Positions 492-64,000 of a DNA stretch of 64,000 bases are shown here, piece by piece. The stretch spans positions 119,822 to 183,821 of the forward strand of contig CAYGJA010000002.1 of the NCBI GenBank assembly GCA_964350165.1, in the 5' to 3' direction. The notes below the pieces were generated by a model that ran no database searches, was not told the origin of the DNA, and worked only from the letters and a program-made list of their open reading frames with translations. This DNA comes from an uncultured Candidatus Saccharibacteria bacterium. GTDB taxonomy: Bacteria > Patescibacteriota > Minisyncoccia > Phycocordibacterales > UBA1006. Every line of letters begins with the position of its first letter. The stretch's first letter is position 1. Position numbers and translations under genes: made by a program.

Positions 492-497
492 AATACT

Positions 498-2896: not shown

Positions 2897-2898
2897 AC

Positions 2899-4323: not shown

Positions 4324-4345
4324 TCTTGAGTGGTATACTGAGTAA

Positions 4346-25436: not shown

Positions 25437-25438
25437 CT

Positions 25439-33577: not shown

Positions 33578-33580
33578 GCT

Positions 33581-33607
33581 TATTCACAGTAATTGAATAG
33601 TTTTTTT
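33581..33607 (+). terminator. Rho-independent terminator after the giant gene (TATTCA-cagtaat-TGAATA, T7)
   Basis: It was read directly and lies immediately after the TAA stop at 33575-33577. Confidence 0.65.
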
Positions 33608-33635
33608 GAGAAAGACTAACTATAGAGGTTATAAT
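33606..33635 (+). promoter_or_regulatory. Candidate sigma70 promoter (-35 TTGAGA, 17-18 nt spacer, -10 TATAAT) for the downstream surface-protein genes
   Basis: The hexamers were read directly, about 40 nt upstream of the ATG at 33677. Confidence 0.4.
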
Positions 33636-33676
33636 GGGGCCATGTGTTTACGCGCACATCTCTTATTCGGAATAGC

Positions 33677-34726: not shown

Positions 34727-34772
34727 TGCAGGTATTATTGCGGTCAAAGGATGGCAATAGTACAATATCGTT

Positions 34773-44036: not shown

Positions 44037-47000
44037 ATGAAGAAAATACTTTTTTTACCCAAGAAATTTGGATTTATTACTGGCGGATTCCTTTTGTTGG
44101 CCCTCTTTTTAGCTGTTCCTGGAGGTTTTTTGCAGGCTCAAGGTACTGCAATAGTTGACTCGCTTACGCTGGTTAATGCTCAGAATGCAGCAGATGTTTT
44201 GACTGTGGACCCCGGAGAAGTAATACTTCCCAGCGAGACGGGGGGTAGGAATTATACCTTTCGTGCCAATACGGCGGGAACTATTGGTAGTGTCCGTTTT
44301 GTATTGAGTGGTCCTCTTAATACTATATTCGTAGCAAACACAAAGCCTTATATGTTGGCGGGAATAGACTCCAGTGGTTATTACAATGGGCTTAGTTTTC
44401 CTGACGGAACCTATACCTTAACAGCAACGCCCTATACTGGCCCTGGTGCTACTGGTTCTTCGGGGGTATCTCTTTCGAGAACGTTTACGGTTGGTAATAG
44501 TGCTCCTGCTTCAACAGGAGGAACTCAAACCACTATTGATTTCTCAGTAAATGATTTGGTTGAGCTCATTCAGGTAACACCCCTATACGACCAACCGGGT
44601 GGTGCTTTTTTATACAACGGGCAGAGCGATCTAACTGCGCAGATTGTAAATACTTCTGTTGTTCGCAACGGTGTTCCTTGGTGGAACATCCAGATGTGGG
44701 ACGGAAAAATTGGCTGGGTGCCGCAAACGTACTTAACTTTAGCTGCTGTTAATACTGACACCACCCCACCAGCCACCCCAACCCTCAACACTTCCGTCTC
44801 GGGAACAACCGTTAACCTAAATTGGAATGCGGTTACCGACCCAAGTTCAGTGGCCTATGAAGTCCAAAAAGACGGAGTAAATCTAATCACCAACTTAACC
44901 ACTACTTCATACGTTGCCACCAATCTTTCTGCTGGAAACCACGTCTTTCGAATTCGAGCCAAAGATGGCTCCAATAACTATTCTGGTTGGAGTAGTAAGA
45001 CTGTGACGATTAGTGCGCCGGGGCCGGTCACAACTCCAACCCCAACTCCAACCGATCCAACACCAGTTCCTACCGATCCAACACCAACAGATTCTGTGCC
45101 ACCAGTTGTTACCGGACACCAAGCTCCTGGTCTGATTCAAGCAGAAGATTTTTCAGCAGCTTCGGACGCTACCCCTGGAAATAGTGGCTTGGCTTTTGGG
45201 GGAATAACTAATAGTGCTAATCCTAATGTTGACATTGAGGCAACAACCGATACTGCTGGAGGTCACAATGTGGGTTGGACAAATGTTGGGGAAACTCTCA
45301 GTTACGAAATTACGGTTGCCGAAACTGGAACATACACCGTTGAGTATCGTCTCTCAAGTATTTTTGCTCAAAAAAACAGGTTCCAGGTTCTGCTTGATGG
45401 GGCCATCGTTCATACCGTGGCCGTGCCAAGCACCGGGGGGTGGCAATCTTGGGCAACCGTGTCCAAGACGCTTAACCTCACCGCTGGGCAACATACACTT
45501 CGTTTGAATATTATTGAAAGTGGCTGGAATATTAACTGGATAAAATTCACGAAACAAACAGGTACCACTGCTCCTGACCCAACCCCACTTCCAACAGCTC
45601 CTTCTACTCAGTTTTCTGTAGGCGATTGTGTGATTACTACCGCAACCTCTCTTAATATTAGAAACACTCCTAATGGCACGGTTCTTGGCCAGTTGCTACC
45701 AGGGGTCATTGCCTCGGTGGTTCAGAATAGTCAGAATGGTACCACTGTTGGTGGATATACTTGGTGGAATATTGAAACCAGTTCACTCACTGGCTGGGCT
45801 GCTGAAGAATACCTGGTTGATAGCGCTTGCGTTCCTGTTCCAGTCTCTGACACCACCCCACCAGCTACCCCAACCCTTAACACTTCCGTCTCGGGAACAA
45901 CCGTTAACCTAAATTGGAATGCGGTTACCGACCCAAGTTCAGTGGCCTATGAAGTCCAAAAAGACGGAGTAAATCTAATCACCAACTTAACCACTACTTC
46001 ATACGTTGCCACCAATCTTTCTGCTGGAAACCACGTCTTTCGAATTCGAGCCAAAGATGGCTCCAATAACTATTCTGGTTGGAGTAGTAAGACTGTGACG
46101 ATTAGTGCGCCGGGGCCGATAGTAAACACAGGGCCGATTGTGAAAGGTGGTATGGTAACAACGCAAGGTTCTGGGTCTATGCAGCTTTATGGAGACGCTG
46201 GTGCTAATCCTATCGACACCATCGTTTCTGGAATTAGTGGAATTGTTACCCATGATTGTTTGGAAAATGGAGCAACCTATTGCCGAGTCGTTTTCGATAA
46301 TGGCCAAGATGGCTGGCTAGACGATTCTTATTTGGTGCACACCGGATCATCTCCGGTTCCAACAGGACCAACGACGGTTGCTTCACAATTTTCTAGTGGG
46401 CAATGTGTGCAGGTGACGGCAAGCTCGCTTAATGTCCGAAGTGCCCCTGGAACAAGCGCGTCCTTTTTGGGTAGCCAGACTCTGAACAGTAAAGGAACTG
46501 TTTTGGCAAATTCAAACACAAACCCTTCTTCGGCCAATGGATTTATCTGGAGACAGATTGATTTCTTGCAAGGAGTCGATGGTTATGTGGCTGAGCAGTA
46601 CCTAGACCCTGCAACTAATTGTTCTATGCCAGCACCTGCCCCGGTTCCTGTTGTTGATGTCACTGCGCCACCGGTTCCTTCGTTCTCAAGCTCATCTCCA
46701 AATACTAACGCTATAACACTCTCTTGGAGTTCTGTAGAAAGTGGCGCTGTGTATGAGATACGTCGGGGCACCACCATTGTGGCTTCTTCTTTGACCAATC
46801 TCTCACATACAGTATCTGGTTTGGCTTCAGGAACTTCTTATACTTTCCAGATTAGAGCAAAAGATGCTGCTGGAAATACTTCTGCGTGGTCCGCTTCCTT
46901 GACTGTAGATACCCTATCTGTTGTTACGAATCCAGCACCGCCTACTTCGAATGGGGGAACGGTTGGGGTTCCGGTGACACAATGTTCTGACGGTGTGGAC

Positions 47001-48596
47001 AACGATTCTGATGGGCTGGTTGATTATCCAAACGATCCTGGTTGTGCATCGCCAAACGATGACAACGAGGATAATGTTGCGGTCCCGCCTACGGGAAATG
47101 TCATCAACGTCAGTAGCGGTGGGAGTATCGCCAACGCTATCGCCAGTGTCACATCGACTCCGGTTACCATTTATCTTGCTCCTGGCACCTACAATGTTGG
47201 CTCAGGTATCACACTTCCAGATGGAGTGAGTCTAGTCGGTTCGGGTGTTGATAAGACGACTATCACCAGCAACATAACGTATCAATCTGACATCTACACC
47301 ATTCAGCAGGCTGGTGCAGGAGCTCAGGGAGTGTTGATTACCACCGGAAGCAACCAAGTAATCCGAGACCTAACACTTGATGGTAATAATAAAAATATTT
47401 CAATAGCGATTCGTACAGCGCCGGGCAGTCCTGCTCCAACCAATGTTTCTAATGTAGAGATGTACAATCTACACATTAAAGAATTCTATACTTCGGGTGT
47501 TGTCTTGACCCAGATAAGTAATAGTAGTTTGCACGACACTACTTTCTACGACAACTCTTGGACTTCAAACAACAATGATGGCTACACAACTGCTTCGATT
47601 GTTTGGCACAGTACAACAGATGTTGATGTTTACAACGTCGACATTCTCGAACGAGAACAGCGCAGTGGCCACATCGGAGGAGGTAGCGGTATGGACGCTA
47701 TTCCTTTGCCTCCTACATACGGCAACACTCTGACAAGAACTCGCTTCTTTAATTCACGTGTGTTTGTCGACCCATTCTCTCCTTGGGGTGGTGGTGTAAA
47801 CAGTAATATTGCGCACGAATGGTGGGGAACCGAATTGATAGATTCTGAGATATTCAACAATACCTACAACAACAACCTGAGCTTGGTCTTTGAACACGCG
47901 GGTCCTCAGGGCGTGCCGTCGGTGAAGGTCTACAACAACAATTTCTTCCTTAGTGACGTCAAGTCTTGGGGCGTAGAGGTAACGAGACATGACGTAGAGC
48001 TCTACAATAATTACTTCGACACTGGTCTGGTTGGTACTCCTGTGTTTGCCAACTGGGATGGAGGTTTCCGGCCCGAAAATACCAATATTCATGGCAACCT
48101 TATCAGAATAAGACAGGGCTATACCAACTGGATAAGTTCAGTCATAACCTTTGCTGGTGGATTCAAAAACATGAACTTTACCAACAATACAGTGCATGTT
48201 GATACGAGTGCTGAGGTTACAATGCTTGCTTTGTATGGCCAGGGTACAATTGTTGACTCTCACTTTGATAACAATCTGTTCTATCGAAGTATTCCAAAAA
48301 GCGGTGGTGGAGTTGATCCCTTCTTGCACCTGGAACCCTACGGTTGTTCTACGCCGGCTACGTTTGGAATTCAGAACGTGACTCTGCGTAATAACTTGTT
48401 TGACGGCATAAACAAAGACGCGTTCCGTACCACCTGTAATTCGACCAAGACCGGAGATTTGATGCAATCAGGCAACATCAACGCCTCGGCTCAATTGAAT
48501 CTATCTGGATCTCGCTATGGTTCCTACTACACCCCGCTATCTACGAGTCCAGCTGTTGGAGGTGGTCTTGATGGATCAAACATCGGAGCTTTCTAG
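44037..48596 (+). CDS. Giant (1519 aa) surface protein with SH3b x3-4, FN3 x2 (near-identical), a CBM6-like domain, a TSP3-like Cys motif and a C-terminal right-handed beta-helix
   Basis: It has a signal/TM (GGFLLLALFLAVPGG). It has SH3b-like WWNIQMWDGKIGWVPQTYL, TWWNIETSSLTGWAAEEYL and FIWRQIDFLQGVDGYVAEQYL. FN3 VNLNWNAVTDPSSVAYEVQKDG occurs twice. It has a CBM-like HTLRLNIIESGWNINWIKF and a beta-helix repeat region NNN/YNN. Confidence 0.55.
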   Translation: MKKILFLPKKFGFITGGFLLLALFLAVPGGFLQAQGTAIVDSLTLVNAQNAADVLTVDPGEVILPSETGGRNYTFRANTAGTIGSVRFVLSGPLNTIFVANTKPYMLAGIDSSGYYNGLSFPDGTYTLTATPYTGPGATGSSGVSLSRTFTVGNSAPASTGGTQTTIDFSVNDLVELIQVTPLYDQPGGAFLYNGQSDLTAQIVNTSVVRNGVPWWNIQMWDGKIGWVPQTYLTLAAVNTDTTPPATPTLNTSVSGTTVNLNWNAVTDPSSVAYEVQKDGVNLITNLTTTSYVATNLSAGNHVFRIRAKDGSNNYSGWSSKTVTISAPGPVTTPTPTPTDPTPVPTDPTPTDSVPPVVTGHQAPGLIQAEDFSAASDATPGNSGLAFGGITNSANPNVDIEATTDTAGGHNVGWTNVGETLSYEITVAETGTYTVEYRLSSIFAQKNRFQVLLDGAIVHTVAVPSTGGWQSWATVSKTLNLTAGQHTLRLNIIESGWNINWIKFTKQTGTTAPDPTPLPTAPSTQFSVGDCVITTATSLNIRNTPNGTVLGQLLPGVIASVVQNSQNGTTVGGYTWWNIETSSLTGWAAEEYLVDSACVPVPVSDTTPPATPTLNTSVSGTTVNLNWNAVTDPSSVAYEVQKDGVNLITNLTTTSYVATNLSAGNHVFRIRAKDGSNNYSGWSSKTVTISAPGPIVNTGPIVKGGMVTTQGSGSMQLYGDAGANPIDTIVSGISGIVTHDCLENGATYCRVVFDNGQDGWLDDSYLVHTGSSPVPTGPTTVASQFSSGQCVQVTASSLNVRSAPGTSASFLGSQTLNSKGTVLANSNTNPSSANGFIWRQIDFLQGVDGYVAEQYLDPATNCSMPAPAPVPVVDVTAPPVPSFSSSSPNTNAITLSWSSVESGAVYEIRRGTTIVASSLTNLSHTVSGLASGTSYTFQIRAKDAAGNTSAWSASLTVDTLSVVTNPAPPTSNGGTVGVPVTQCSDGVDNDSDGLVDYPNDPGCASPNDDNEDNVAVPPTGNVINVSSGGSIANAIASVTSTPVTIYLAPGTYNVGSGITLPDGVSLVGSGVDKTTITSNITYQSDIYTIQQAGAGAQGVLITTGSNQVIRDLTLDGNNKNISIAIRTAPGSPAPTNVSNVEMYNLHIKEFYTSGVVLTQISNSSLHDTTFYDNSWTSNNNDGYTTASIVWHSTTDVDVYNVDILEREQRSGHIGGGSGMDAIPLPPTYGNTLTRTRFFNSRVFVDPFSPWGGGVNSNIAHEWWGTELIDSEIFNNTYNNNLSLVFEHAGPQGVPSVKVYNNNFFLSDVKSWGVEVTRHDVELYNNYFDTGLVGTPVFANWDGGFRPENTNIHGNLIRIRQGYTNWISSVITFAGGFKNMNFTNNTVHVDTSAEVTMLALYGQGTIVDSHFDNNLFYRSIPKSGGGVDPFLHLEPYGCSTPATFGIQNVTLRNNLFDGINKDAFRTTCNSTKTGDLMQSGNINASAQLNLSGSRYGSYYTPLSTSPAVGGGLDGSNIGAF
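44755..45026 (+). repeat. 272-nt intragenic direct repeat copy 1 (FN3-encoding), near-identical to 45847-46118
   Basis: I saw only 2 mismatches over about 272 nt on direct comparison. Confidence 0.85.
45847..46118 (+). repeat. 272-nt intragenic direct repeat copy 2
   Basis: See copy 1. The copies are 1092 nt apart. Confidence 0.85.
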
Positions 48597-53991: not shown

Positions 53992-54085
53992 CTGTTAATT
54001 ATACCACAAATTACAGATAATTTCAATAATATCTTCACAAAAATACGAAGAGGAAATATTTGGCGACGACGGGCTTGGAGAAGGG

Positions 54086-54598
54086 TTGTATAATGATTTT
54101 GTGAAAAAAATAGTAGTAATGGGCTGTGCGGCTTCAGGAAAAACCACTTTGGCGAAAAAAATAAGCAAAATTATTGATGTTCCGGTTTATCACTTGGACA
54201 GTATTTTTTGGGTGAAAAAAGGAGGAATCAAGCAGGATTTGTTTCTGGAAAAAATCACAAAATTGATGCAGAGGGAAGGATGGGTTATAGAGGGTGATTT
54301 TTCTCGATCAATCACTTTTGAGCCACGTTTACATGCGGCTGATATCATAATTTATTATGATCTTTCTAAGATTATTATTTACTGGCGCCTCTTGAAGCGG
54401 CTTGTAAAAAATTTCTCCAAAGTGCGCGCAGAGATGCCAGGCAACAATACAGAGCTCTCTATATTTATTCCAACCGCAAAACATATTTGGAATTTTCGCT
54501 CAACAAAAGCCCTGGAAAAGATTGAGGAATATAAAAATGCTAAAAAGGTTTTTATTTTAAAAACCCTAAAAGACGAAAAAAAGCTCTTCGCTGGATAA
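54086..54598 (+). CDS. Small P-loop ATPase (topology-modulation protein/adenylate-kinase-like)
   Basis: It has the Walker A motif VVMGCAASGKTTLAKK. The size is 170 aa. Confidence 0.5.
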   Translation: MYNDFVKKIVVMGCAASGKTTLAKKISKIIDVPVYHLDSIFWVKKGGIKQDLFLEKITKLMQREGWVIEGDFSRSITFEPRLHAADIIIYYDLSKIIIYWRLLKRLVKNFSKVRAEMPGNNTELSIFIPTAKHIWNFRSTKALEKIEEYKNAKKVFILKTLKDEKKLFAG

Positions 54599-54713
54599 TG
54601 TCTTTGATGGGTGGGGGTGTGTAGAAAATTAAAGCGAATATGGTTATGGTTTTTTTTGATAGTACAAAATCAAAAATTACGAGTAACAGCATAGTCGGAA
54701 GGCAACAACAATG

Positions 54714-56366
54714 CTAAGACTTATCTGAAAATAAATAGTCTCTTTCATCAACATAACTACCTTTTGGGTACAGAAGATTTCGATACTTCTCGAGTAGTGC
54801 TTTTACCTCATATTGCAGACTCCCCTGAATCTCTTTTTCATAGATACTCCTTAAATCTGAAGTGGCTTGATTTTTAAGATCGATATTTTGTTCATCCCGA
54901 ACATAAAGTACTCCCGAGTTGTAGTGTTTAGTTCTTTCATTAACATGATTACGATGCTCCGTAATCTTTATCATTACCGAACCTAGGCCTTCAGATTTCT
55001 CACTATCTTGTATGTCAACAAATTTATTCTCTAACCAATCGCTATACCCGTGTTTTTGTAAGAGATCCTTAAACTCTTGTGTGAATTGTTGGCCAATTTT
55101 CTGGTGTTTTAACTCTTCTCGTTGGTATGTTGCGTGAACGAGAAGAGAAAGTATCATTTGAGCATTTTTAATATCCTCAATGCTTCCACATAACAACATG
55201 TCGGTTCGCCCAGCAAAGTGTGGCGTTAAGCTCTTTCCATCAGCACCAGGAACGAAGTGTTTTCCAACAACAACCTGACCAGCATCGTAAATGGTTACAC
55301 CATTTATCCCTTGGTTGTGATCAAGAAAAGCAGGAGTGTACTGTAAGGTTTTTGTGCGACTCAACATAAAGGCAAGTGTTGCAATACCGCAACCTTCATT
55401 GTCAAGACGTTGCGGAATGCACGCTTGATAATAAGACTCAGGATCAGTATTTATTCCAGAGCTTTTTTTCTTTTTTTCTAACACCGCAAGACAAAGTTCG
55501 ATCATTTCAGCATTAGCTACAGGATTAGCGACAAAACATGTATCTTGTCCATGTGCAACGAAGCCACCGGTTTTTTTAAGAAAATGACTCAAGGAAGAAT
55601 TTTGACCGGTATGAGCTTTAAGCCCTATGGGCAATAAGGTTTTATCAAACAAAGCTCGCTCAAGCTTTTCTTTTGAAGCTTCCTTAATGACTTCTTTAAT
55701 CTCTCGATCTAGTTCGTTAGTTTCCTTAAAGAAATTCCTTATTGCTTGCTCGGCATACTGCTTGATTCTTTCTTTGCTCTCGAAGACGCTTGATTTGTTT
55801 TTTTCTAGAAAGAGCTTTAGAAATTGAATTTGGTCAAAAGTTATACGATATCCCTTTGAGATATCTTCAAATAGGGTCTTTTGCAGCCCTTGTTCAATAC
55901 CTTGATTATCTAGCATTTTTTCTGTTGTAATTAACTCATCTTTGTGCGGAATTGCTTGTTGATCTTGAAGCAATCCAAAAACATTGCCCAGACTAGAAAC
56001 TCCTCTTATCTCTGAAAGATAATTAAGCCAAAATTTATGCAAAAAACTATACGTCTCGTCAGAATGAGCTAATTTTTGAAATAATGTTTCAGAGACAGTG
56101 GTTGCGTTTTTTATTCTAGTAAAACAATCACCCAGATCAGAAACTACTTTTGTCTTTGAAAGATAATCAAGCCAAAATTTATGAAGGTTTTCATACACCT
56201 GGTCACTTTTCAGTATTGACCGATATTTGTCTTCACCAAACAAGTGCCCCAACGAGCTAGAGTTTTTTATTGTTGAAAGGGTATCACAAAACTCACGCAC
56301 CAAAGCCTCATTTTCTGGTGTTTCATACTGATTATTCCTTTGTGGCTCAGCAAAAGACTCACTCAT
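54714..56366 (-). CDS. Hypothetical 550-aa protein with an N-terminal tandem approximately-45-aa repeat, possibly effector-like
   Basis: The repeats YENLHKFWLDYLSKTKVVSDLGDCF and YSFLHKFWLNYLSEIRGVSSLGNVF match at both protein and DNA level. The C-terminal half contains spaced Cys/His residues (DTCFVANP, EGCGIATLAF, MLLCGSIEDI). Confidence 0.4.
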   Translation of the reverse strand: MSESFAEPQRNNQYETPENEALVREFCDTLSTIKNSSSLGHLFGEDKYRSILKSDQVYENLHKFWLDYLSKTKVVSDLGDCFTRIKNATTVSETLFQKLAHSDETYSFLHKFWLNYLSEIRGVSSLGNVFGLLQDQQAIPHKDELITTEKMLDNQGIEQGLQKTLFEDISKGYRITFDQIQFLKLFLEKNKSSVFESKERIKQYAEQAIRNFFKETNELDREIKEVIKEASKEKLERALFDKTLLPIGLKAHTGQNSSLSHFLKKTGGFVAHGQDTCFVANPVANAEMIELCLAVLEKKKKSSGINTDPESYYQACIPQRLDNEGCGIATLAFMLSRTKTLQYTPAFLDHNQGINGVTIYDAGQVVVGKHFVPGADGKSLTPHFAGRTDMLLCGSIEDIKNAQMILSLLVHATYQREELKHQKIGQQFTQEFKDLLQKHGYSDWLENKFVDIQDSEKSEGLGSVMIKITEHRNHVNERTKHYNSGVLYVRDEQNIDLKNQATSDLRSIYEKEIQGSLQYEVKALLEKYRNLLYPKGSYVDERDYLFSDKS

Positions 56367-56377
56367 GGTTAAATGTA

Positions 56378-56581
56378 TTAAGCAGGTATTCTCTCTGGTT
56401 CTTTTTCCGGCACTGGTTCTACTTTTTCCGGCACCGCCTCTGGTTCTTCTAGGGGCTGCTCTAGAGGCAAAGGATCTTCTTGAGGTTCCTGAAAAGGTAT
56501 TTGTTTTGGAATTCCTGGCTGTTCGGCAATGGGATTAAACCACTCATAAATTTTTTTGGATGTTGTTGCTTGTTCAGACAT
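56378..56581 (-). CDS. Small Pro/Glu-rich ORF immediately upstream of 54714-56366 in another frame, possibly a detached N-terminus
   Basis: It encodes a PEKVEPVPEKEPERIPA low-complexity sequence. There is an 11-nt gap to the next ATG and no RBS. Confidence 0.25.
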   Translation of the reverse strand: MSEQATTSKKIYEWFNPIAEQPGIPKQIPFQEPQEDPLPLEQPLEEPEAVPEKVEPVPEKEPERIPA

Positions 56582-56800
56582 AATGTTGGGATTATTAGCT
56601 TATATATCTATACATAATACCATTATAGATACGCCAAAAAAATAATAATGACACAAAACCACAAAAATCACCTGAGAGGGTGGTTTTTGTGTTGAGGCTG
56701 AAGAATAAGGTGCTAGGTATCTTTTTATAGACATTTCTACTAACAACTAAAAACAAAAAAAGATGATTGAAGGATCTTGAGTTTGAACAATTCAAATACC

Positions 56801-58213
56801 CTACAATGAATAATGAGAATTTTTAATATCGCGTTTCCAAAGCGACATGGGTCTGGTGAGTAAGAAGTACATAATTTCTTGCGGTGTATAGTGATCTTGT
56901 ACCGAATATAGCGCATCTAAACCACTGGTAACAATTGTCCGAAAGTGTTCTTTTTCGCGACTGCTTTCCAGGAGCTCTTCTTTTTTTTGTATGTAAAACT
57001 GCATTGCTTGTTTGATGAAAGAGGGTCTATCGCCCGCCGCAAGACGTGCGAATATTTCATCGCGCATGTTGTCTATTTGCTCGGTCTCACCTCTGTTTCT
57101 TGGGCGCACCTCGCCATTGTGCATCGCCGGCTTTGACCCCCCCCGCCAATCTTTATACGATAATTCAAGCTCATGAAATACGGCATGCATCTGTTCGTGG
57201 TCTATTGTGTTTTGAATTTGACGCTGGAAATAAGGCTTGGATTTTTCCTGTGTTGTTGCATTTATCAGTATTGTTGGTATGAAATCATCTTTATGTTTTG
57301 TGTAAAAAAAGACACCATGTGTGGAACCTTTTTTATTTTCTAGTGCGCAATAGTCTTTTTCTGTTTTTACCATTACCATCAATGAAAAAGGAGTTTTTTT
57401 AAACTCTATTGACTCAGGGTCGAGTGAATTTCTTAATTCAATAGCTTTGTCGTTAGGAATTTCTTGATTTGTCCTTTTTATTACATCTAGGATAAAATCA
57501 ATCTTTGGGATTTCTTTTTGCATAGCAGAATAGCTTCTATAAAAAGAGTCCATTTTTGTGTGGGCATATTTCTGTAATGTAATCGTCGTTTGATTAAAAA
57601 ATTCTACCTCACCATTCTTTTGTTGAGTTATAACATTAAAGGCATTATCTACTAAATCATGCAAAAAAACTGATGTTATTGTCTCGGGGTTACGCTGATA
57701 TTGATTTTTAATTGCAGAAATAGCGTTTTCTGCTGCTCTTTCTAGAGAGTTGCGATATTGCTCTACTGCACTTTTAACTTTACAGAGAACTTCTTCGCGC
57801 AAGGCTGGGGTGATGTTGCGAATACTTGCTGGTAGTCGGATGATTTCCCAGAAATGCTCCTGAATAAAAGCCCTCTGTTGTTGAAGATCTAATTTCTGGA
57901 TGTTTTGCAGTATTCTTTCTTTTTCACGTAGCCGGTGTTCGAGCTCAGCTTTTTCTTCTCGTTTTTTTTGTAGAGCCACAAAGACTTCTTTTGCTTTTTC
58001 GTACCGTTCTGCTTGTCGCTCCGTGAGTCTCTGATAATAATCCAAAGACTCTTCTTCTATAATAGCTCTTCTATTTTGACGATTAAATTGATGAAAAGGT
58101 TCAATCATGTTTTTAGTTTGATGTGAATCTGTAAAACAAATTGTACCATTTAAAATGAACATCGTGAGCGTTATATGGATCTCCGCCGACTGGTGGAGAT
58201 CGAACCTAAACAA
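56801..58213 (-). CDS. Hypothetical 470-aa protein with an HExxH motif and an N-terminal coiled coil, possibly a zinc-metallopeptidase-like effector
   Basis: It has TIDHEQMHAVFHE (HEQMH). It has the coiled-coil sequence EKAKEVFVALQKKREEKAELEHRLREKERILQNIQKLDLQQQ. Confidence 0.35.
   Translation of the reverse strand: MFRFDLHQSAEIHITLTMFILNGTICFTDSHQTKNMIEPFHQFNRQNRRAIIEEESLDYYQRLTERQAERYEKAKEVFVALQKKREEKAELEHRLREKERILQNIQKLDLQQQRAFIQEHFWEIIRLPASIRNITPALREEVLCKVKSAVEQYRNSLERAAENAISAIKNQYQRNPETITSVFLHDLVDNAFNVITQQKNGEVEFFNQTTITLQKYAHTKMDSFYRSYSAMQKEIPKIDFILDVIKRTNQEIPNDKAIELRNSLDPESIEFKKTPFSLMVMVKTEKDYCALENKKGSTHGVFFYTKHKDDFIPTILINATTQEKSKPYFQRQIQNTIDHEQMHAVFHELELSYKDWRGGSKPAMHNGEVRPRNRGETEQIDNMRDEIFARLAAGDRPSFIKQAMQFYIQKKEELLESSREKEHFRTIVTSGLDALYSVQDHYTPQEIMYFLLTRPMSLWKRDIKNSHYSL
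58176..58210. repeat. Cassette-boundary repeat R1 (ggatctccgccgactggtggagatcgaacctaaac), overlapping the PLD gene stop codon
   Basis: It is a member of the GGTTCGAACCTAAAT repeat family. It has a hairpin GATCTCC-N10-GGAGATC. Confidence 0.7.
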
Positions 58214-59240
58214 GATAAATCAGCATTTCTACGGCAGCACCTGTAAGTTTGTCCCACCAGGAGAGAGGGTGATCGGCGGGCTGGTATGCGCGAGCTCGGG
58301 CTAGCCAGTCGGAAACAATTTTCTTTAGACGGACTACGGTTTCTCGATTATTGAGCTCGATGCCGACCTCAGCGTTAAGGCGAAAAGAAAAAACATCTAA
58401 ATTTTGTGAGCCAACCAAGGCGGTTTTGGAATCGATAGTAATTGTCTTGGCATGATTCATGTCCTTGGAAAGATAGATTTCGGCACCAAATTTGTGGGCT
58501 TTGTTGAGAAAATAGATGTTAATGGCATCAATGCTTTCTTGATCAGTTCGGCTGGGAACCAAAAGGATAACGCGAATCCCCCGCAGGCAAGCCTGGTGGA
58601 TTTCTGCCAAGATGTATCGCTTGGGAGCAAAATACGGCGTTGTGATGATAATTTCATGTTCTGCCTCTACAAAATAGCGATGGTAGTCTTGCTGGAGATG
58701 ATGAATCTGAAGGGCGGGGAAGTGTTCGCTTATTTTTGCTCGAGCACGCCCCAGTAAGGTGGTGTTTTTTAGCGCGAGCACTTCCGGGTTTTTTCCTCCT
58801 GCCCAATGATAATCGCACACAAACATATTGGTCAGTCTCTGGATAAGATGCTTGTTTGTAGTTGAGATAGCCAAATCGGCCCAATTTTTTGCTGATTCGT
58901 GAATGTTGACACCACCTGTAAAGACAATTTCCTGGTCAACAATGATGATTTTTCGATGTAGCCGATGTCGATAGCGACTTGCCAAGTGAAGCTCGGCTCC
59001 TGCTTTTTCAAGCTTCTGTTGTTGAAGCTTTGGAAATGCACGACTGCCAAAACCGTCTAACACCAAAACCACTCGCACTCCTGATTCGGCTTTGGATCGA
59101 AGCAGGCTAACAAAGTCGTATTCAGGTGTATCCGGCAAGAAAATATACATCTCAATAAGAATGTATTCCTTTGCGCTCGCCAAGGTGTGGTACATATGTT
59201 TCCAAGCCTTGTGTGACTTGGTATAAAAACGATAGCTCAT
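58206..59240 (-). CDS. Phospholipase D-family protein (two HKD motifs, cardiolipin-synthase/PLD-like)
   Basis: It has HRKIIIVDQEIVFTGGVN and NHAKTITIDSKTALVGSQN. Confidence 0.65.
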   Translation of the reverse strand: MSYRFYTKSHKAWKHMYHTLASAKEYILIEMYIFLPDTPEYDFVSLLRSKAESGVRVVLVLDGFGSRAFPKLQQQKLEKAGAELHLASRYRHRLHRKIIIVDQEIVFTGGVNIHESAKNWADLAISTTNKHLIQRLTNMFVCDYHWAGGKNPEVLALKNTTLLGRARAKISEHFPALQIHHLQQDYHRYFVEAEHEIIITTPYFAPKRYILAEIHQACLRGIRVILLVPSRTDQESIDAINIYFLNKAHKFGAEIYLSKDMNHAKTITIDSKTALVGSQNLDVFSFRLNAEVGIELNNRETVVRLKKIVSDWLARARAYQPADHPLSWWDKLTGAAVEMLIYLV

Positions 59241-59331
59241 ATTTCTAGGCTAAGTATACCAATAGATTAGAAAGACATAGTCAACGTGCATTCGCGAAGC
59301 AATCAAAAAGCTGAATATACCAGCTATCAAT

Positions 59332-59357
59332 CAACTGGCTGGGGTTCGAACCTAAAT
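59332..59357. repeat. Cassette-boundary repeat R2 (caactggctggggttcgaacctaaat), overlapping the stop of 59352-60038
   Basis: It has the perfect 10-bp palindrome GGTTCGAACC. Confidence 0.75.
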
Positions 59358-60038
59358 ATCAATATGCGGCGCAGTGTTGCCCTTAAAGTCCCGTGGATAT
59401 TCTTCTACTTGGACATTAAAAGATGTTGTGTGGCCAGCAAAATAGACTGTCACTTTTGCATCCCCTCGACCAACGATAATAGGAGATGCTGTAAAGCTGG
59501 GTGGTGAATCTTGGCTGGTGCGAGTGTCTGTGATTTGGAAAGACAAGACTCGTGTGTTTGAGGACTCTAGGGCCAGAGGGGTGTCTGGGTTAATTTGTGA
59601 CACATATCGCGCAAAGCCGTCAAAAGAAGGCGCACCGTTAGCTTGTTCAATACGGAGTTCGGGGCCAAATCTACCCCAGTTTTGCTCCACAAAGAATTGA
59701 TTGCTTGAAGGCTTATTTTTGTTGTCGACAAGACTAATAAGCATGTTTTGTCCACATTTAGCTTTTATGTATCGTCTGGAAACCGTGCAGACAGAAATCT
59801 TAGAAAACGCCGGGTTGGGCTCTTGGTTTAGGTTCAAATTAAGCGGATTAAATATCTCGACTACTGGTCGGGGGGCGGGCAAGATTCGTATGTGATTAGC
59901 GTATACATAGCCTATCCATGGAATCACGGAAAAGCTGATTAGGACGAATGTGAAAAATATCTTGGTAAATTTTTGCTCTTTGTCAGGAGTGGGCAAGTCG
60001 GCGACCTTCTGTTCAGGTGGCAACAAGTCGTTTGTCAT
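59352..60038 (-). CDS. Signal-anchored secreted hypothetical protein
   Basis: Its N-terminal TM is IFFTFVLISFSVIPWIGYVYA. It has no recognisable domain. Confidence 0.4.
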   Translation of the reverse strand: MTNDLLPPEQKVADLPTPDKEQKFTKIFFTFVLISFSVIPWIGYVYANHIRILPAPRPVVEIFNPLNLNLNQEPNPAFSKISVCTVSRRYIKAKCGQNMLISLVDNKNKPSSNQFFVEQNWGRFGPELRIEQANGAPSFDGFARYVSQINPDTPLALESSNTRVLSFQITDTRTSQDSPPSFTASPIIVGRGDAKVTVYFAGHTTSFNVQVEEYPRDFKGNTAPHIDI

Positions 60039-60105
60039 AAAATTATTTTACCATAAGTCTAATCGAGCCAATCAAGAGGTTCTTGTAAAATAGAAGCCAA
60101 ATCGG

Positions 60106-60138
60106 ATCTCTGCCAACTGGCTGGGGTTCGAACTTAGA
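60106..60138. repeat. Cassette-boundary repeat R3 (atctctgccaactggctggggttcgaacttaga)
   Basis: It shares 25 of 26 nt with R2 and R4. Confidence 0.75.
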
Positions 60139-60179
60139 ATAAGAGACAGATCGCTAGATTAGTTTTTCAGCTCATCAAT

Positions 60180-60548
60180 TTGTGCAACAATGAGTCTATG
60201 AAAATTAACACTTTTTCAAAAATAGTCTTGGTCGTGAACATCGTGGCTCTCATTGGCACAGCCTTCCTGTCTTTTAGCCCGTTGCTACTTGTTTTGGTTG
60301 CCCTTAGTTTATATATAATTTTTTCGAAAGAATTATCAGCAAAGTTCCTTTCATTTTTCTCGTATAGCATGAGTTTGGGCTATATCGCCGTATTAGTGAT
60401 GTCAGTCGTGAGGGAGCCGAATATTCTTAGCGCTTACATTGGAGATTATTCTTTGTCCGTGACAGCATTTTTTTACATCAAACAGATCTTGATTATATTC
60501 TTGATTATCGGTTTTTTGTTTGTTGCCCGAATGTTTAGAAAGAAATAA
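60180..60548 (+). CDS. Small integral membrane protein (3-4 TM helices), unknown function
   Basis: It is hydrophobic (IVLVVNIVALIGTAFLSFSPLLLVLVALSLYIIF...). Confidence 0.4.
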   Translation: MCNNESMKINTFSKIVLVVNIVALIGTAFLSFSPLLLVLVALSLYIIFSKELSAKFLSFFSYSMSLGYIAVLVMSVVREPNILSAYIGDYSLSVTAFFYIKQILIIFLIIGFLFVARMFRKK

Positions 60549-60578
60549 ACATCATGCACTTCATGAACGTTAAATCGT

Positions 60579-60611
60579 AGCTCTGCCAACTGGCTGGGGT
60601 TCGAACTTAGA
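60579..60611. repeat. Cassette-boundary repeat R4 (agctctgccaactggctggggttcgaacttaga)
   Basis: It is near-identical to R3. Confidence 0.75.
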
Positions 60612-60658
60612 AGCCTGGAGTCCTTGCAGGTGATGTGTCTTGTTGCTATAAGTAAGTC

Positions 60659-61555
60659 ATGAAAATAAGCTCAAAAATCAAACTAATAATCGGATTACTT
60701 GGGATTGTTGCGGTCGTGCTCTTTGTGTCTAGAGAAGGTTCAAGCATGTCTATGTGGGATCAGTCTAATGTTGCCGGGCCATCCGAAACCATACAAGAAA
60801 GCAGTGCAAAGGACAGGAGAGGGGACTCCAATGAGCCGCTAACGAATACTGTTGTCCTCGTCGATAAGCCACTGGACCAAGATGGTTTTACTGTTTTCCC
60901 AATAACCAAGGCAATGTATGACGAGATCCCTGCGTTTGAGTATCAGCATCAGTTTGCGCAACCATATATGGATGAGTGCCTTGACGCGATCGGGGGCACG
61001 TCCGCATACCTGCGCTGTGTTGAGGGATTTGAGATCGTAAAATATCAAGAGTACGCACGACGAGAGGGAGACTGTTTGATAATTGCCCTAAGAGAGGCGG
61101 GGTCGTTAGAGATTTGTGATCGCAATACGCCTTCTAATCCTGAAAGTTATTACTATGCTACATATATGCCTAAATTAGGGCACGTTTACTTAACGCAGGG
61201 CAACGAATATAGCAGTTACACCTACGTATCTGAAAAAGGAAATGAGATCGCAGTATCTTCAGAGCTGCTCCACCCGATACCTGAAACTAGTTATTATATT
61301 GAAAATCGCATAGATAACGGAGAGTCACGGTACGGATGGAATGGGGTTCGGATTAGGCAACTGCACGAGGGGGTACTGTCTACTGTTTTTGAGTTTAATC
61401 CATTTGATTATGGTGAGACATATGCATTTGAGCGCATTAAATTTGTTGAGCCCGGCAAGTTTTTGTTTAAAAAGTCGCCCGCACCAGAGTATTTAGACCC
61501 AGGGCCGATTGATTGGTTATATGGCGAGGTGAGCTATAAAGTAAAGGCTGAATAG
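60659..61555 (+). CDS. Secreted hypothetical protein (signal anchor; Cys-containing)
   Basis: Its N-terminus is IKLIIGLLGIVAVVLFVS. It has no recognisable domain. Confidence 0.4.
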   Translation: MKISSKIKLIIGLLGIVAVVLFVSREGSSMSMWDQSNVAGPSETIQESSAKDRRGDSNEPLTNTVVLVDKPLDQDGFTVFPITKAMYDEIPAFEYQHQFAQPYMDECLDAIGGTSAYLRCVEGFEIVKYQEYARREGDCLIIALREAGSLEICDRNTPSNPESYYYATYMPKLGHVYLTQGNEYSSYTYVSEKGNEIAVSSELLHPIPETSYYIENRIDNGESRYGWNGVRIRQLHEGVLSTVFEFNPFDYGETYAFERIKFVEPGKFLFKKSPAPEYLDPGPIDWLYGEVSYKVKAE

Positions 61556-61597
61556 CCATTCAAGATAGGAGAATCATCTGATATTTTGCCCTATATA

Positions 61598-61677
61598 ACG
61601 TTCACGACGTTCAGACGTTCACAAAAACCCTAGCGCTAAGGATGCTCCGCGGATTGAGGAGGGTTCGAACCTAAATA
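61598..61677. repeat. Cassette-boundary repeat R5, full-length 80-nt form, overlapping the stop of 61671-62306
   Basis: The sequence is aACGTTCAcgACGTTCAgACGTTCAcaaaaaCCCTAGCGCTAAGGatgCTCCGCGGattgaGGAGGGTTCGAACCtaaat. It contains three 9-bp direct repeats plus the palindromes TAGCGCTA, CCGCGG and GGTTCGAACC. Confidence 0.8.
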
Positions 61678-62306
61678 CTCAGCACTTGTACATAAAAAGT
61701 CTTTTGGAGGATATGGAGTAGCTCCCTAGATCTAGCAATTTGACGGTCGGCATACTCACCAATAGCGCCTTCAATTGGTGCTGTAATTGTAAAATCTCGA
61801 AAGAAGGCCTCCTTGTCAGATTCTGAAACCTCTGACCAAAAAGTTTTTGGTAAGCCAAATTTGCCGTCACGGTGACGCATTATTCTTTGTGTAAGTCTCT
61901 GTAAATAAATATCTTTGCTGTCGGGAAAAAGGAATAAAAACTCGTAATCTCCTGAGTGGGGGTCTAGGATTTTATGTACGGTCGGTGGGTGCTTGATCGG
62001 GCACTCAACAACTACTCTTGAGCCGGCACTATTTATCGCTTGCTGGGCCTGGCGTAGATAATGTTCCATCCATACCTCTTTGCCTTCCCCGCGGTTAACT
62101 CTTTTAAAGGTGTCTCCCGGTTCAAGATTGTATTTCTCAACGATCTCATTTTGGATCATTTGGTCAAGGTCGACCAGGACATATGAGAACTCTTTCCTCA
62201 ATTTCTCGGCAAAAGTGCTTTTGCCCACAGCAGTAGTGCCGTATAGATAGATAACTTTTGGTGAACGGCCGGTGTTGAGTTGCGCGAGATATTCTTGAGT
62301 TTTCAT
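61671..62306 (-). CDS. P-loop kinase-like protein (AAA/zeta-toxin/gluconokinase-like fold)
   Basis: It has the Walker A motif VIYLYGTTAVGKSTFAEKL. The size is 211 aa. Confidence 0.45.
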   Translation of the reverse strand: MKTQEYLAQLNTGRSPKVIYLYGTTAVGKSTFAEKLRKEFSYVLVDLDQMIQNEIVEKYNLEPGDTFKRVNRGEGKEVWMEHYLRQAQQAINSAGSRVVVECPIKHPPTVHKILDPHSGDYEFLFLFPDSKDIYLQRLTQRIMRHRDGKFGLPKTFWSEVSESDKEAFFRDFTITAPIEGAIGEYADRQIARSRELLHILQKTFYVQVLSI

Positions 62307-62325
62307 ATCCTCATCATACCACCCT

Positions 62326-62404
62326 AACGTTCACGACGTTCAGACGTTCACACAGACCCTAGCGGTAAGGATGCTCCCCGTACTAGACAAGTTCCGAACT
62401 TTGG
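62326..62404. repeat. Cassette-boundary repeat R6, full-length form with a degenerate 3' end
   Basis: The sequence aacgttcacgacgttcagacgttcacacagaccctagcggtaaggatgctccccgtactagacaagttccgaactttgg is about 80% identical to R5. Confidence 0.75.
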
Positions 62405-62454
62405 ATTGGATAGAAATTGAGAAGGGATTTCAGTTATTTAGAATGCATAACGAA

Positions 62455-63492
62455 TTATTCAAGACAGTTCTCCAGTAGTTTCAGTTTGGAATTAGTTAAA
62501 TCAATTTCTATCTCAATTCCATTAGGCAGTACTATTTGGGGGTCAGTATGACCAAACTCGGCATTTGTGACTATTGGCAGGTCGGATTGACCGAACTCAA
62601 TTGAAACGACTTCCTTGACTGCTTCGTCTAGCTCCTCTTTTTCTTCGTCCGAATAGTTTCGGGCACGTGCAAAAATGATGCCGTTTATTTTTCCGAAAAC
62701 ACCCTGAACGCCGTAATTTCTTAACATCCATTTTACTGACGAGATAGAAGGTTTTTCTTCTGAAGTCTCAAAAAACAGTATTTTATCATTCCAAAAGTCA
62801 TCATTAGGATAGAAGGTTGTGCTTTTTATAAACTCTAGCACCTCAATACATCCTCCAAAGAGCTTTCCTGATACGACACCTGATCCCTGAATGGTCCTCA
62901 TTCCTTCGTCTTCCTTCAGCTCTTTCGTTTTGCCTAGGTTCTCTTCCTTATGCCAGTCGAGGTAACCGTCACAATACTGACCAAAGTGAGGATATTCGTA
63001 AGTGTCTGAGGGGCTAAACAAAATATCGTATACATGTTGCTTGAAAGCATCTGGCAAGCTTTCCATCTGTGAAAAACCTGCCATTACTGATGGACCATTG
63101 AAGGTCACTAGGCCTAATTGATTTATGTAGGTGAGCAGTGTTGTCGTATCTGAATAGCCCATAAGTATCTTGGGGTTATTTGCAATTACTTCTTTATCCA
63201 AAAATGGCAAAATACGTACAGAGTCATCTCCTCCAATTGAAACCAGGATAGCATTCACTTCTTTGTCAGCAAAAGCATCGTTGATGTCTTTTGCCCTAAG
63301 CTTTGCGTTGGCTAAGCTTGGGTCGCCAACAGCACGAGTGGATGGATATTCTTTAATATTCAGCCCCCACTCCTTGAGAACCTTAAGCCCATTTTCATAT
63401 ACAGCAGGAAAAGTGTTCGGACCTGCCCACGAGGGCGAGAGTACTGCGACGGTGTCGCCAGGATTTAGTTTTTTTGGCTTTTTGTAATTCAT
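62455..63492 (-). CDS. S66-family LD-carboxypeptidase (MccF/LdcA-like)
   Basis: It has PGDTVAVLSPSWAGP and the nucleophile context MGYSDTTTLLTY. Confidence 0.55.
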   Translation of the reverse strand: MNYKKPKKLNPGDTVAVLSPSWAGPNTFPAVYENGLKVLKEWGLNIKEYPSTRAVGDPSLANAKLRAKDINDAFADKEVNAILVSIGGDDSVRILPFLDKEVIANNPKILMGYSDTTTLLTYINQLGLVTFNGPSVMAGFSQMESLPDAFKQHVYDILFSPSDTYEYPHFGQYCDGYLDWHKEENLGKTKELKEDEGMRTIQGSGVVSGKLFGGCIEVLEFIKSTTFYPNDDFWNDKILFFETSEEKPSISSVKWMLRNYGVQGVFGKINGIIFARARNYSDEEKEELDEAVKEVVSIEFGQSDLPIVTNAEFGHTDPQIVLPNGIEIEIDLTNSKLKLLENCLE

Positions 63493-63532
63493 TTCCTGAT
63501 TATATCAAAGTTCTGAGTCCTGTTGGGGTATA

Positions 63533-63563
63533 CAAAAAGACCCTTATGAATAGGGGTCTTTTT
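63533..63563. terminator. Bidirectional hairpin terminator (AAAGACCC-ttatgaata-GGGGTCTTTTT)
   Basis: It was read directly and lies between R7 and the LD-carboxypeptidase gene start. Confidence 0.55.
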
Positions 63564-63600
63564 GATGGCTCCGCGGACTGAGCAGGGTTCGAACCTAAAT
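63564..63600. repeat. Cassette-boundary repeat R7 (gatggctccgcggactgagcagggttcgaacctaaat), overlapping the GNAT gene stop
   Basis: It has the hairpin GCTC-N9-GAGC followed by GGTTCGAACCTAAAT. Confidence 0.75.
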
Positions 63601-64000
63601 CAACTCTTTTTCCATGATGGTTAATGTGTAGGTTGGACGTTTTTTTGTCCCAACCTCTATATACCCTTGTTTTTCATAATAGGCAGGAAGTCCTTTCTCA
63701 TTCATGGCTGTTAGCTGTATTTTTGCAAAACCTTCCTGCTTAGCGGATTCCTCTGCTGCTCTGAGTAGTTTTTTGCCGATACCTTGTGAGCGATAAGTAG
63801 GGAGGCTGGCCATTTGGCTGAGATACGCCGTTCCATCCTGGTCTTCGTATTGGACAGAGCCAGCTATTTTTTGATCCACTTTGGCCACAAAGAGTCGAAC
63901 ATCCTTGGATCGAACTCTTTCTGCATAATCTTCAGGAAAGTGAGGCTTTGAGATTGGCCCTTGGTTTTCGTGGTTTACCGTGTAGGCAAGTGTTAGAAAT
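63595..64000 (-). CDS. GNAT-family N-acetyltransferase (the N-terminus extends beyond the window end)
   Basis: It has RSQGIGKKLLRAAEESAKQEGFAKIQL (acetyl-CoA binding motif). The frame remains open upstream of the annotated Met to position 64000 (…RSKDVRLFVAKVDQKIAG…). Confidence 0.6.
   Translation of the reverse strand, partial: FLTLAYTVNHENQGPISKPHFPEDYAERVRSKDVRLFVAKVDQKIAGSVQYEDQDGTAYLSQMASLPTYRSQGIGKKLLRAAEESAKQEGFAKIQLTAMNEKGLPAYYEKQGYIEVGTKKRPTYTLTIMEKELI

Follow-up and report, generated by a model that had tools for sequence, protein, structure and literature searches.

Near its right end, the 64,000-nucleotide stretch of Candidatus Saccharibacteria DNA analysed here (the window, counted from its first letter) carries a tandem array of small, unrelated genes separated by seven copies of a short repeat. 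These repeats are probably attachment-site junctions of large serine recombinases (LSRs), within an array of elements accreted at a transfer RNA (tRNA) gene. The link to LSRs is drawn from related loci, and not from a recombinase of the window itself. A first-pass annotation had taken the block for an integron-like array; a cassette array at directly repeated recombination sites is retained from it, the integron mechanism is not. Its fallback proposal, an uncharacterised repeat of the candidate phyla radiation (CPR) that acts as a recombination hotspot, came close to the reading favoured here.

The connection with recombinases is best seen where an LSR gene and a copy of the repeat meet, as they do at the boundaries of LSR-bearing elements in the related loci L010, L018, L019 and L027. 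In L010, an integrated element of about 9.8 kb encodes a primase and a 540-aa LSR (Resolvase, Recombinase and Zn_ribbon_recom domains), whose open reading frame (ORF) ends inside a repeat copy, K-LLRGLSRVRT-stop being encoded by TTGCTCCGCGGACTGAGCAGGGTTCGAACCTAA. In L018, L019 and L027, the LSR reads directly into GCTCC and then into the antisense acceptor and T arm of a tRNA; in L019, a Phage_integrase gene adjoins the LSR. No recombinase other than an LSR is tied to these sites. The LSRs linked to them fall into two subfamilies with thousands of members in Patescibacteria, whose C-termini are of three kinds: some stop right after ...LLRG or ...LLRR, some run on as the translation of an antisense tRNA (GDRDSNP..., AGFEPATN...) and some run on as a tail of the form LRxxD/ExVRT.... 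The existence of these three kinds points therefore to an attP site, the site carried by the element, inside the 3' end of the recombinase gene, and to an exchange of the protein tail upon integration. The right arms of the repeats keep the pattern L-(R/P)-x-(L/V)-x-x-(V/F/I)-R-T by means of synonymous changes (CGA/AGA, CTG/TTG, GGA/GGG), a coding-like conservation, and in most copies with a type-1 right arm TAA, TAG or TGA follows immediately. On alignment, the repeats of the window are homologous to these sites where LSR genes read in at element ends.

The place of exchange is delimited by L015, a locus from the same metagenome as L010, which holds an uninterrupted site and shares its left flank with L010. 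The two left flanks are 100% identical over 85 nt through GGCTCC and divergent after it, and exchange would therefore take place at or beside GCTCC. A 421-aa protein of L015 was considered as a new enzyme and rejected, as its similarity to LSR subfamily 2 covers only the C-terminal ~70 aa of the latter; it is a remnant of an LSR end or a relative.

In the window, all seven copies reported by the first-pass annotation are real, and all are in direct orientation on the forward strand, with cores at 58180, ~59328 (decayed), 60107, 60580, 61644, 62373 and 63568. The conserved element measures about 35 nt. A profile hidden Markov model (HMM) of the core finds exactly seven matches in the window, from 58177 to 63600, all on the forward strand and with E-values of 5e-11 to 4e-5, and no copy between positions 1 and 58000. 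Five copies are matched by a degenerate consensus at no more than 3 mismatches, against 0.01 expected from shuffled sequences. The family is thus confined to a cluster within 58,170-63,600, with 7 copies in 6 kb and 0 in the remaining 58 kb. An eighth, long copy (c8), read in the Logan contig L001, lies about 110 nt past position 64000, after the start of the gene for the GNAT acetyltransferase that runs off the window. The copies bound seven tandem units of unrelated content, 0.47-1.2 kb in size and with genes in mixed orientation, in agreement with the first description of the block. From left to right, junctions (c1 to c7) and genes are as follows.

58170..58210, forward strand: junction c1, core TCTCC at 58180-58184 (HMM E=1.4e-6)
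58206..59240, reverse strand: phospholipase D (PLD)-like protein of 344 aa (Pfam PLDc_2, 7e-40), TAG stop inside c1
59320..59356, forward strand: junction c2, core decayed (ATCAA), outer right arm CAACTGGCTGGGGTTCGAACCTAA intact (HMM E=4.5e-6)
59352..60038, reverse strand: 228-aa ORF without Pfam match, TAG stop inside c2
60096..60139, forward strand: junction c3, core TCTCT, right arm TGCCAACTGGCTGGGGTTCGAACTTAG, read as LCQLAGVRT and a stop in the recombinase frame
60180..60548, forward strand: hydrophobic (membrane-like) protein of ~120 aa, without Pfam match
60569..60612, forward strand: junction c4, core GCTCT, right arm identical to that of c3
60659..61555, forward strand: 298-aa ORF with a hydrophobic N-terminus, without Pfam match
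61596..61676, forward strand: junction c5, long form, core GCTCC at 61644-61648, type-1 right arm read as LRGLRRVRT and a stop
61671..62306, reverse strand: P-loop kinase-like protein of 211 aa (AAA_33/AAA_18, weak), TAG stop inside c5
62325..62479, forward strand: junction c6, long form, core GCTCC at 62373-62377, type-2 right arm CCGTACTAGACAAGTTCCGAAC (HMM E=4e-5)
62455..63492, reverse strand: S66 LD-carboxypeptidase of 345 aa (Pfam)
63534..63600, forward strand: junction c7, core GCTCC at 63568-63572, type-1 right arm read as LRGLSRVRT and a stop (HMM E=5e-11)
63595..64000, reverse strand: GNAT acetyltransferase (Pfam), 165 aa in full, TAG stop inside c7, start past the end of the window

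Most copies stand at the 3' end of an ORF, as had been stated for all of them; c3 is instead placed between two divergent genes. Among the first gene calls, the PLD-like protein, the P-loop kinase, the S66 peptidase and the GNAT are recovered by Pfam, and the three ORFs that had been called secreted or membrane proteins have no Pfam match. Two features that had been ascribed to the whole family were not recovered as such: no more than 3 of the 7 copies (c2, c5 and c7) have the perfect palindrome GGTTCGAACC, and the short hairpin is lost in the consensus fold (RNAalifold, 18 distinct copies aligned), which reaches only -0.73 kcal/mol and contains no compensatory pairs.

Individual copies differ from each other. 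The divergent ones are c1 (1-nt deletion), c2 (core lost) and c6 (other right arm); in c1, the right arm GCCGACTGG-TGGAGATCGAACCTAA is degenerate and the deletion puts the end of the GAAC motif at half-site position 23. This left-most site is presumably the oldest. The long copies c5, c6 and c8 (~80 nt) extend about 50 nt further left, where three tandem ACGTTCAC-type repeats are found together with a weak hairpin, behind which the minus strand has a T-run. In c5, the order from left to right is three ACGTTCAC-type repeats (61597-61624), weak hairpin and minus-strand T-run, left arm CCCTAGCGCTAAGGAT and core. The ACGTTCAC repeats and the left arm of c6 are the same as those of c5, and its right arm reads in the recombinase frame as LPVLDKFRTLDWIEI... 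up to a stop, a 34-codon tail that resembles the C-termini of un-integrated (attP) serine recombinases. In c7, a bidirectional terminator-like hairpin (AAAAAGACCC...GGGTCTTTTT) precedes the left arm GATG, the core and the right arm. Many copies start with GGTAG and then a small hairpin.

Two further details of the junctions were noted. At its outer end, the right arm has a conserved CCTAA (63595-63600, and the same spot in c1, c2 and c5) that gives a stop codon on both strands, its TAA ending the forward-strand recombinase frame and its TAG the minus-strand cassette genes. In addition, the tandem ~9-nt trio AACGTTCAC-GACGTTCAG-ACGTTCAC occurs in the window at 61597-61624 and 62326-62353, and also in L001 (c8), L022/L027, L026 and L030. 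At least three genomes have it in their long junctions, 20-75 nt left of GCTCC, a terminator hairpin separating the two in some cases only. It falls mostly or wholly beyond a recombinase half-site of ~25 bp, and may be a binding place for an accessory protein or a directionality factor.

The position of one motif within the half-site tells the two partners of the reaction apart. Half-site positions are numbered outward from a centre that was placed, by assumption, between T and C in GCTCC, which would contain the crossover dinucleotide; the absolute positions depend on this choice, the 5-bp difference discussed here does not. In the 3 tRNA targets that allow the ...TTCGAAC motif to be read, its last base falls on position 19. 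The corresponding position is 24 in c3-c7 of the window, in both L010 junctions, in the left junction of L027 and in a site of L005, and 23 in c1, which is the one exception among the 10 array or element sites compared; only the right half-site is informative. Read from the aligned sites, tRNA targets and array sites are consequently offset by 5 bp. In the LI integrase, the motif recognised by the zinc-ribbon domain lies at half-site positions 16-24 in attP and 11-19 in attB (Rutherford et al., PMC3783163). The offset seen here matches this attB/attP rule, and the tRNA would therefore be the attB-type partner and the array repeats would have an attP-type right arm (P'). The repeats are indeed not copies of a tRNA end: they part from the tRNA sequence right after CCT, and in every preserved copy the T-loop motif stands 5 bp further from the acceptor than it does in the tRNA.

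The arms of the junctions also occur in several combinations. The class A left arm (CCCTAGCGSTAAGGAT with ACGTTCAC repeats) is followed by a type-1 right arm (LRGLRRVRT and a stop) in c5 and by a type-2 right arm (LPVLDKFRT...) in c6. The class B left arm (ACCAAGCAGGTYGGTA, usually behind a terminator hairpin) is found with both right-arm types in L022, the class D left arm with both in L004, and an LSR 3' end precedes a type-1 right arm in L015 and a type-2 one in L026. In two Logan contigs from the sample series of the window itself, L030 and L031, a class B left arm is followed by the c6 right arm (97% identical over 39 nt) and then by a different gene; a c5-like module before yet another gene is also present. 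Partner sites share only the 5-bp core, and the arms, as aligned, switch exactly at GCTCC; this reassortment at the core fits a reading of the sites as P-P' junctions.

In related genomes, the arrays are anchored at a tRNA, as can be read from their long contigs. The element itself is rare: one GTDB species genome, the Candidatus Saccharibacteria metagenome-assembled genome L004, and 13 metagenome loci have a match to it, and viral contigs have none (IMG/VR, 0 matches), on which ground a phage or viral origin was rejected. At least ten sites are counted in L011, L014, L008 and the long parent contigs L022/L027, six in L005, and two each in L004 and L015. None of the cassette genes of the window has a homologue in the related arrays fetched; at the same sites, other genomes carry entirely different cargo. 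Along L022/L027 (contigs of 69.7 kb and 48.9 kb), taken with the LSR on the forward strand, at least ten small cassettes separated by the repeat are followed by a three-gene module (263 aa, JmjC, 298 aa), a junction whose type-2 right arm reads LRVVDKIRTLNW..., and a 10.4-kb element. The latter, which bears a restriction-modification system, encodes two methyltransferases, an AlwI-type endonuclease, a small 'Recombinase'-domain protein, a helix-turn-helix protein and the LSR P0128; past it come GCTCC with an antisense tRNA 3' end, two genes, and then TruB-IF3-L20-RNR. The target tRNA of L027 is interrupted by a group I intron (RF00028, 81 bits; 11535-11823, minus strand). An ORF overlapping this intron (11729-12058) appears by eye to have an HNH-like motif; the intron-split tRNA was missed by ARAGORN, and L018 has the same arrangement. 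In L026, an intron-less tRNA-Asn (ARAGORN) lies beside TruB, at the place equivalent to that of the tRNA in L027. A remnant of an LSR 3' end (~400 nt) lies there between the tRNA-Asn and the three-gene module, and more junctions with other neighbours are found beyond. The module is common to L026 and L022, with 77-83% nucleotide identity, and the similarity does not extend past its body: distal to the tRNA, it ends ~50-65 nt before the bounding site in both genomes, and on the tRNA side it ends ~70 nt short in L022, the LSR remnant intervening in L026. Another locus, L029, which encodes P0127, was rejected as an unrelated pilus locus.

From these observations, we propose the following scheme. 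Each repeat would contain a 5-bp core, GCTCC, as the place of strand exchange; read in antisense, this core corresponds to the final bases of the target tRNA (...GGA-G-C). The right arm of ~25 bp would be an attP-type half-site (P'), whose distal GGTTCGAAC would mimic the tRNA T-loop at a distance from the centre that is greater by 5 bp. The left arm would be the P arm of the preceding element, often behind a terminator hairpin and three ACGTTCAC-type repeats. Small circular elements would integrate successively at one tRNA 3' end by attP x attB recombination, each newcomer landing between the previous element and the tRNA. With such a placement, internal boundaries would therefore be of the form P(old)-core-P'(new), and the oldest units would be the furthest from the tRNA; only the last junction, as in L027, would be P-core-B'. 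The array of the window, which would have been built by such serial LSR integration, would be seen from its old end, with the most degenerate copy, c1, at the greatest distance from the predicted tRNA. The scheme predicts this target tRNA, probably tRNA-Asn, on the minus strand to the right of position 64000, perhaps together with a recombinase-bearing element.

Several points weigh against this scheme. The 64-kb window contains neither a serine recombinase nor a tRNA, the LSR link resting on related loci, and the right end of the array lies outside the sequence read. In keeping with the first-pass annotation, which had seen no integrase in the window, no tyrosine recombinase, serine recombinase or Y1 transposase is found among the scanned window ORFs of at least 120 aa, and ARAGORN finds no tRNA or transfer-messenger RNA (tmRNA) in the 64 kb. 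The right flanks of L010 and L015 differ right after the site, and do not provide a clean two-sided pair of filled and empty sites. The left arms contain no convincing inverted GGTTCGAAC motif, and their spacing to the core is variable. In the Logan contigs from the population of the window itself, there is no excised circle, empty site or presence/absence polymorphism of a cassette. Finally, LSRs are normally strict for attP x attB, and such strictness does not account for the integration of recombinase-less cassettes with non-coding P arms.

This last point bears on the origin of the recombinase-less, single-gene cassettes of the window, for which two routes can be considered. Their being moved in trans by an LSR encoded elsewhere is a possibility to which we give a little less than even weight; the non-coding boundary modules common to unrelated cargo and to different genomes, as well as the unit size of 0.47-1.2 kb, speak for it. 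That they are deletion remnants of once-autonomous elements is somewhat probable, given the decayed LSR gene ends at the L026 and L015 junctions, the 34-codon tail remnant kept by c6, and the strict attP x attB directionality. A more specific form of movement in trans, and a rather doubtful one, is that the recombinase-less units are dedicated miniature mobile cassettes, in each of which a single gene would stand between a P' half-site and a shared non-coding boundary module, and which would be captured and stacked at tRNA-Asn by LSRs of co-resident integrative elements. The boundary module of such a cassette would consist of ACGTTCAC repeats, a terminator and a P half-site, and occurs in different genomes after cargo of unrelated kinds. 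Neither circles nor empty sites nor cassette polymorphisms are observed, and some junctions elsewhere are clearly decayed recombinase ends.

Before LSR junctions were preferred, other origins of the repeats were weighed. The layout is that of an integron cassette array, or of a cluster of attC sites lacking an integrase (CALIN), in which a tyrosine integrase, IntI, encoded past the window would act on the repeats as attC sites in folded single-stranded form: units of 0.47-1.2 kb hold unrelated single genes, the sites stand at ORF ends and stop codons lie inside them. attC sites are 57-141 nt long, with imperfect inverted repeats R''(RYYYAAC)-L''...L'-R'(GTTRRRY) that form a stable single-strand hairpin. 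The repeats have none of this. Between 57.8 and 64 kb, no RYYYAAC...GTTRRRY pair exists at 45-141 nt spacing on either strand, the conserved part is just ~35 nt without R''/L''-L'/R' symmetry, and single-stranded DNA folds of the 96-nt long copies are no more stable than shuffled sequences (z = 0.0 to -0.3, both strands), in line with the weak consensus fold given above. Genes are moreover in mixed orientation and have terminator-like hairpins of their own. All recombinases tied to the sites, including the enzymes at array ends in related loci, are of the serine type, the scanned ORFs of the window include no tyrosine recombinase, and the literature searched contains no report of integrons in Saccharibacteria, nor any paper on integrons or serine-recombinase cassette arrays in Saccharibacteria or Patescibacteria. 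We therefore give practically no credit to the integron model of the first-pass annotation. Almost as improbable are repetitive extragenic palindromic (REP) sequences, or their paired form REPIN, spread by a REP-associated tyrosine transposase (RAYT, an IS200-like Y1 transposase). A Y1_Tnp gene (PF01797, 1e-16) does lie inside the related arrays L011, L014 and L022, and the GGTAG and small hairpin at the start of many copies recall the REP tetranucleotide GTAG; but the window has no such gene, the hairpin is not conserved, the copies are all direct and clustered, neither dispersed nor paired as in REPINs, and the transposase has different inverted repeats of its own (GTGCCTGTCCCCATTGTT, tandem GTCCCCATT) and moves as a 726-bp unit. 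As a separate observation on this gene, its copies map to 6460-7185 in L011, 2264-2989 in L014 and 16628-17290 in L022, bracketed by inverted GTGCCTGTCCCCATTGTT and next to tandem GTCCCCATTATTT; L011 has two of them.

The repeats could also act at the RNA level, as a 3'-untranslated-region motif, a processing signal or a terminator module, and take no part in recombination. Terminator-like hairpins with T-runs beside the core in long copies, and the four minus-strand genes that stop inside the element (PLD-like, 228-aa ORF, kinase and GNAT), would agree with it. The core, however, has no conserved fold and keeps one fixed orientation though the flanking genes point both ways, terminators are not in excess in the region (8 against 5.6 ± 2.5 in shuffled sequences), and Rfam gives no match at the gathering threshold. 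With E up to 10, the scan of the window returns weak unrelated matches only, all off the repeats. A transcribed element would furthermore leave unexplained both the recombinase ORFs that enter the site and the homology to tRNA, and is hence very unlikely. The similarity of the right arm to an antisense tRNA acceptor and T arm, together with the Phage_integrase gene beside the LSR in L019, could rather suggest tRNA-fragment direct repeats, i.e. displaced tRNA 3' ends left at the borders of islands by tyrosine integrases. Against this, every preserved copy has the 5 extra bp from acceptor to T-loop motif and diverges from the tRNA directly after CCT, partner sites are identical over the 5-bp core only, as expected for serine and not for tyrosine recombination, and the ORFs that cross the site encode serine recombinases; this origin, too, is very improbable. 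That the repeats are themselves tRNA genes was rejected, neither a cloverleaf nor an exact tRNA 3' end identity being found (ARAGORN, Rfam).

Compared with known systems, arrays of LSR junctions appear, by analogy, closest to the ssrA islands of Dehalococcoides. There, DsiB, a CcrB-like LSR, integrates at the tmRNA 3' end, and tandem units lie downstream of the target, each with a 20-bp repeat of the target end and a conserved adjacent motif; some islands lack an integration module and were proposed to be mobilisable in cis, the array growing by accretion (PMC3146451). An LSR, a tRNA-like 3' end as target, tandem accreted units and the lack of an integration module in some of them are common to both systems. 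In contrast, the units here are single genes of 0.5-1.2 kb and not islands with six-gene integration modules, the sites are attP-type mimics with a 5-bp offset and not exact 20-bp duplicates of the target end, and the recombinase ORF itself spans attP. The host is also different (Saccharibacteria/Patescibacteria), as is the target, which is tRNA-Asn, sometimes with a group I intron, and not ssrA. Serial integration at one site is known as well from staphylococci, in which composites of the staphylococcal cassette chromosome (SCC), such as SCCmec, are formed at rlmH (orfX) by the LSRs CcrAB and CcrC. As in the array described here, the elements are split by repeated integration-site sequences and recombinase-less pseudo-SCC units lie between sites; they differ in that the target is the end of a protein-coding gene, the units measure tens of kb and there is no tRNA mimicry. 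We know of no single-gene cassettes with a shared non-coding boundary module among SCC elements. This comparison draws in part on the discussion in PMC3146451.

The tycheposon islands of Prochlorococcus follow a similar accretion logic in another streamlined genome: they are anchored at tRNAs, newcomers push older elements inward, degraded elements and extra partial-tRNA repeats are scattered along them, and the cargo includes small adaptive genes (bioRxiv 10.1101/2020.12.28.424599). However, 910 of 937 tycheposons use tyrosine recombinases and their repeats are true partial tRNAs (bioRxiv 10.1101/2020.12.28.424599), whereas the sites described here involve an LSR and attP-type half-sites. In the Listeria A118/LI integrase model, the same distal motif is present in target and element sites and is shifted by exactly 5 bp, as shown by structure and mutagenesis for one phage integrase (PMC3783163); here, the offset is read from natural sequences and for one half-site. 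With integrons, the array shares layout and function, namely a directional stack of mostly single-gene, unrelated cassettes, each ending in a recombination site, and a high turnover between genomes. It would differ from them by a serine enzyme acting on double-stranded att half-sites, where integrons use a tyrosine enzyme and folded single-stranded attC sites, and by a tRNA anchor; in the sequence read, it also has mixed orientation, cassette-borne terminators and no platform promoter or attI. From its sequence, the array looks like an integron in layout that would have been built by a different, broadly known mechanism. What is distinctive here is the combination of mostly single-gene cassettes of integron size, a shared non-coding boundary module, an attP inside the recombinase ORF and a natural read-out of the 5-bp offset.

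Saccharibacteria and other CPR bacteria have very small genomes, and little is understood of how accessory genes enter and leave them. The locus suggests one route of gene gain in CPR bacteria, in which serine recombinases integrate elements at a tRNA gene (tRNA-Asn where it can be identified) and leave a chronological stack of tiny unrelated accessory genes, here a PLD-like protein, cell-wall enzymes, a kinase, an acetyltransferase and secreted or membrane-like proteins. Such arrays would constitute a natural catalogue of attP-type half-sites next to their tRNA attB. As the recombinase genes read over their own attP, the prediction of sites would become near-trivial for a large unexplored LSR family, which could be useful to serine-integrase toolkits for genome engineering. 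An integron-like layout need not mean integron machinery. If the units were miniature cassettes moved in trans, Saccharibacteria and other CPR bacteria would possess a serine-recombinase functional analogue of the integron.

Some observations concern the representation of the locus in public data. Exact look-ups of the kinase and PLD proteins give no match; those of the S66 and 298-aa proteins return only Logan contigs, which are 100% identical to the window and broken at the repeats. The short-read Logan contigs L001-L003, L020, L021, L030 and L031 (several runs, ERR35349xx-ERR35350xx) break exactly at the repeats and hold one cassette each, and the locus is fragmented in public short-read assemblies because contigs break in this way. 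Contigs of the sample series came from the runs ERR3534981, ERR3534987, ERR3534997, ERR3534999 and ERR3535002.

Directly to the left of the array, the block 54000-58200 has a low GC content (0.37, against 0.44 for the whole window). It encodes a 170-aa P-loop ORF and ORFs of 550 and 470 aa without Pfam match, contains a 63-nt direct repeat (55977/56121), and has no detected att-type site; it may be an older or unrelated insertion. Further away, positions 42-7138 of the window encode a set resembling type IV pili or a type II secretion system (T2SSF, prepilin N-methylation motifs), followed by a 930-aa TraG/VirD4-like coupling ATPase. Two giant surface-protein genes, at 25409-35795 and 44037-48596, encode proteins of 2722 aa (Laminin_G_3) and 1519 aa (CBM6/SH3/fn3). 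Internal or paralogous repeats recur in them at a spacing of ~1.04-1.15 kb, among them a 272-nt duplicate with 99% identity (44755 and 45847).

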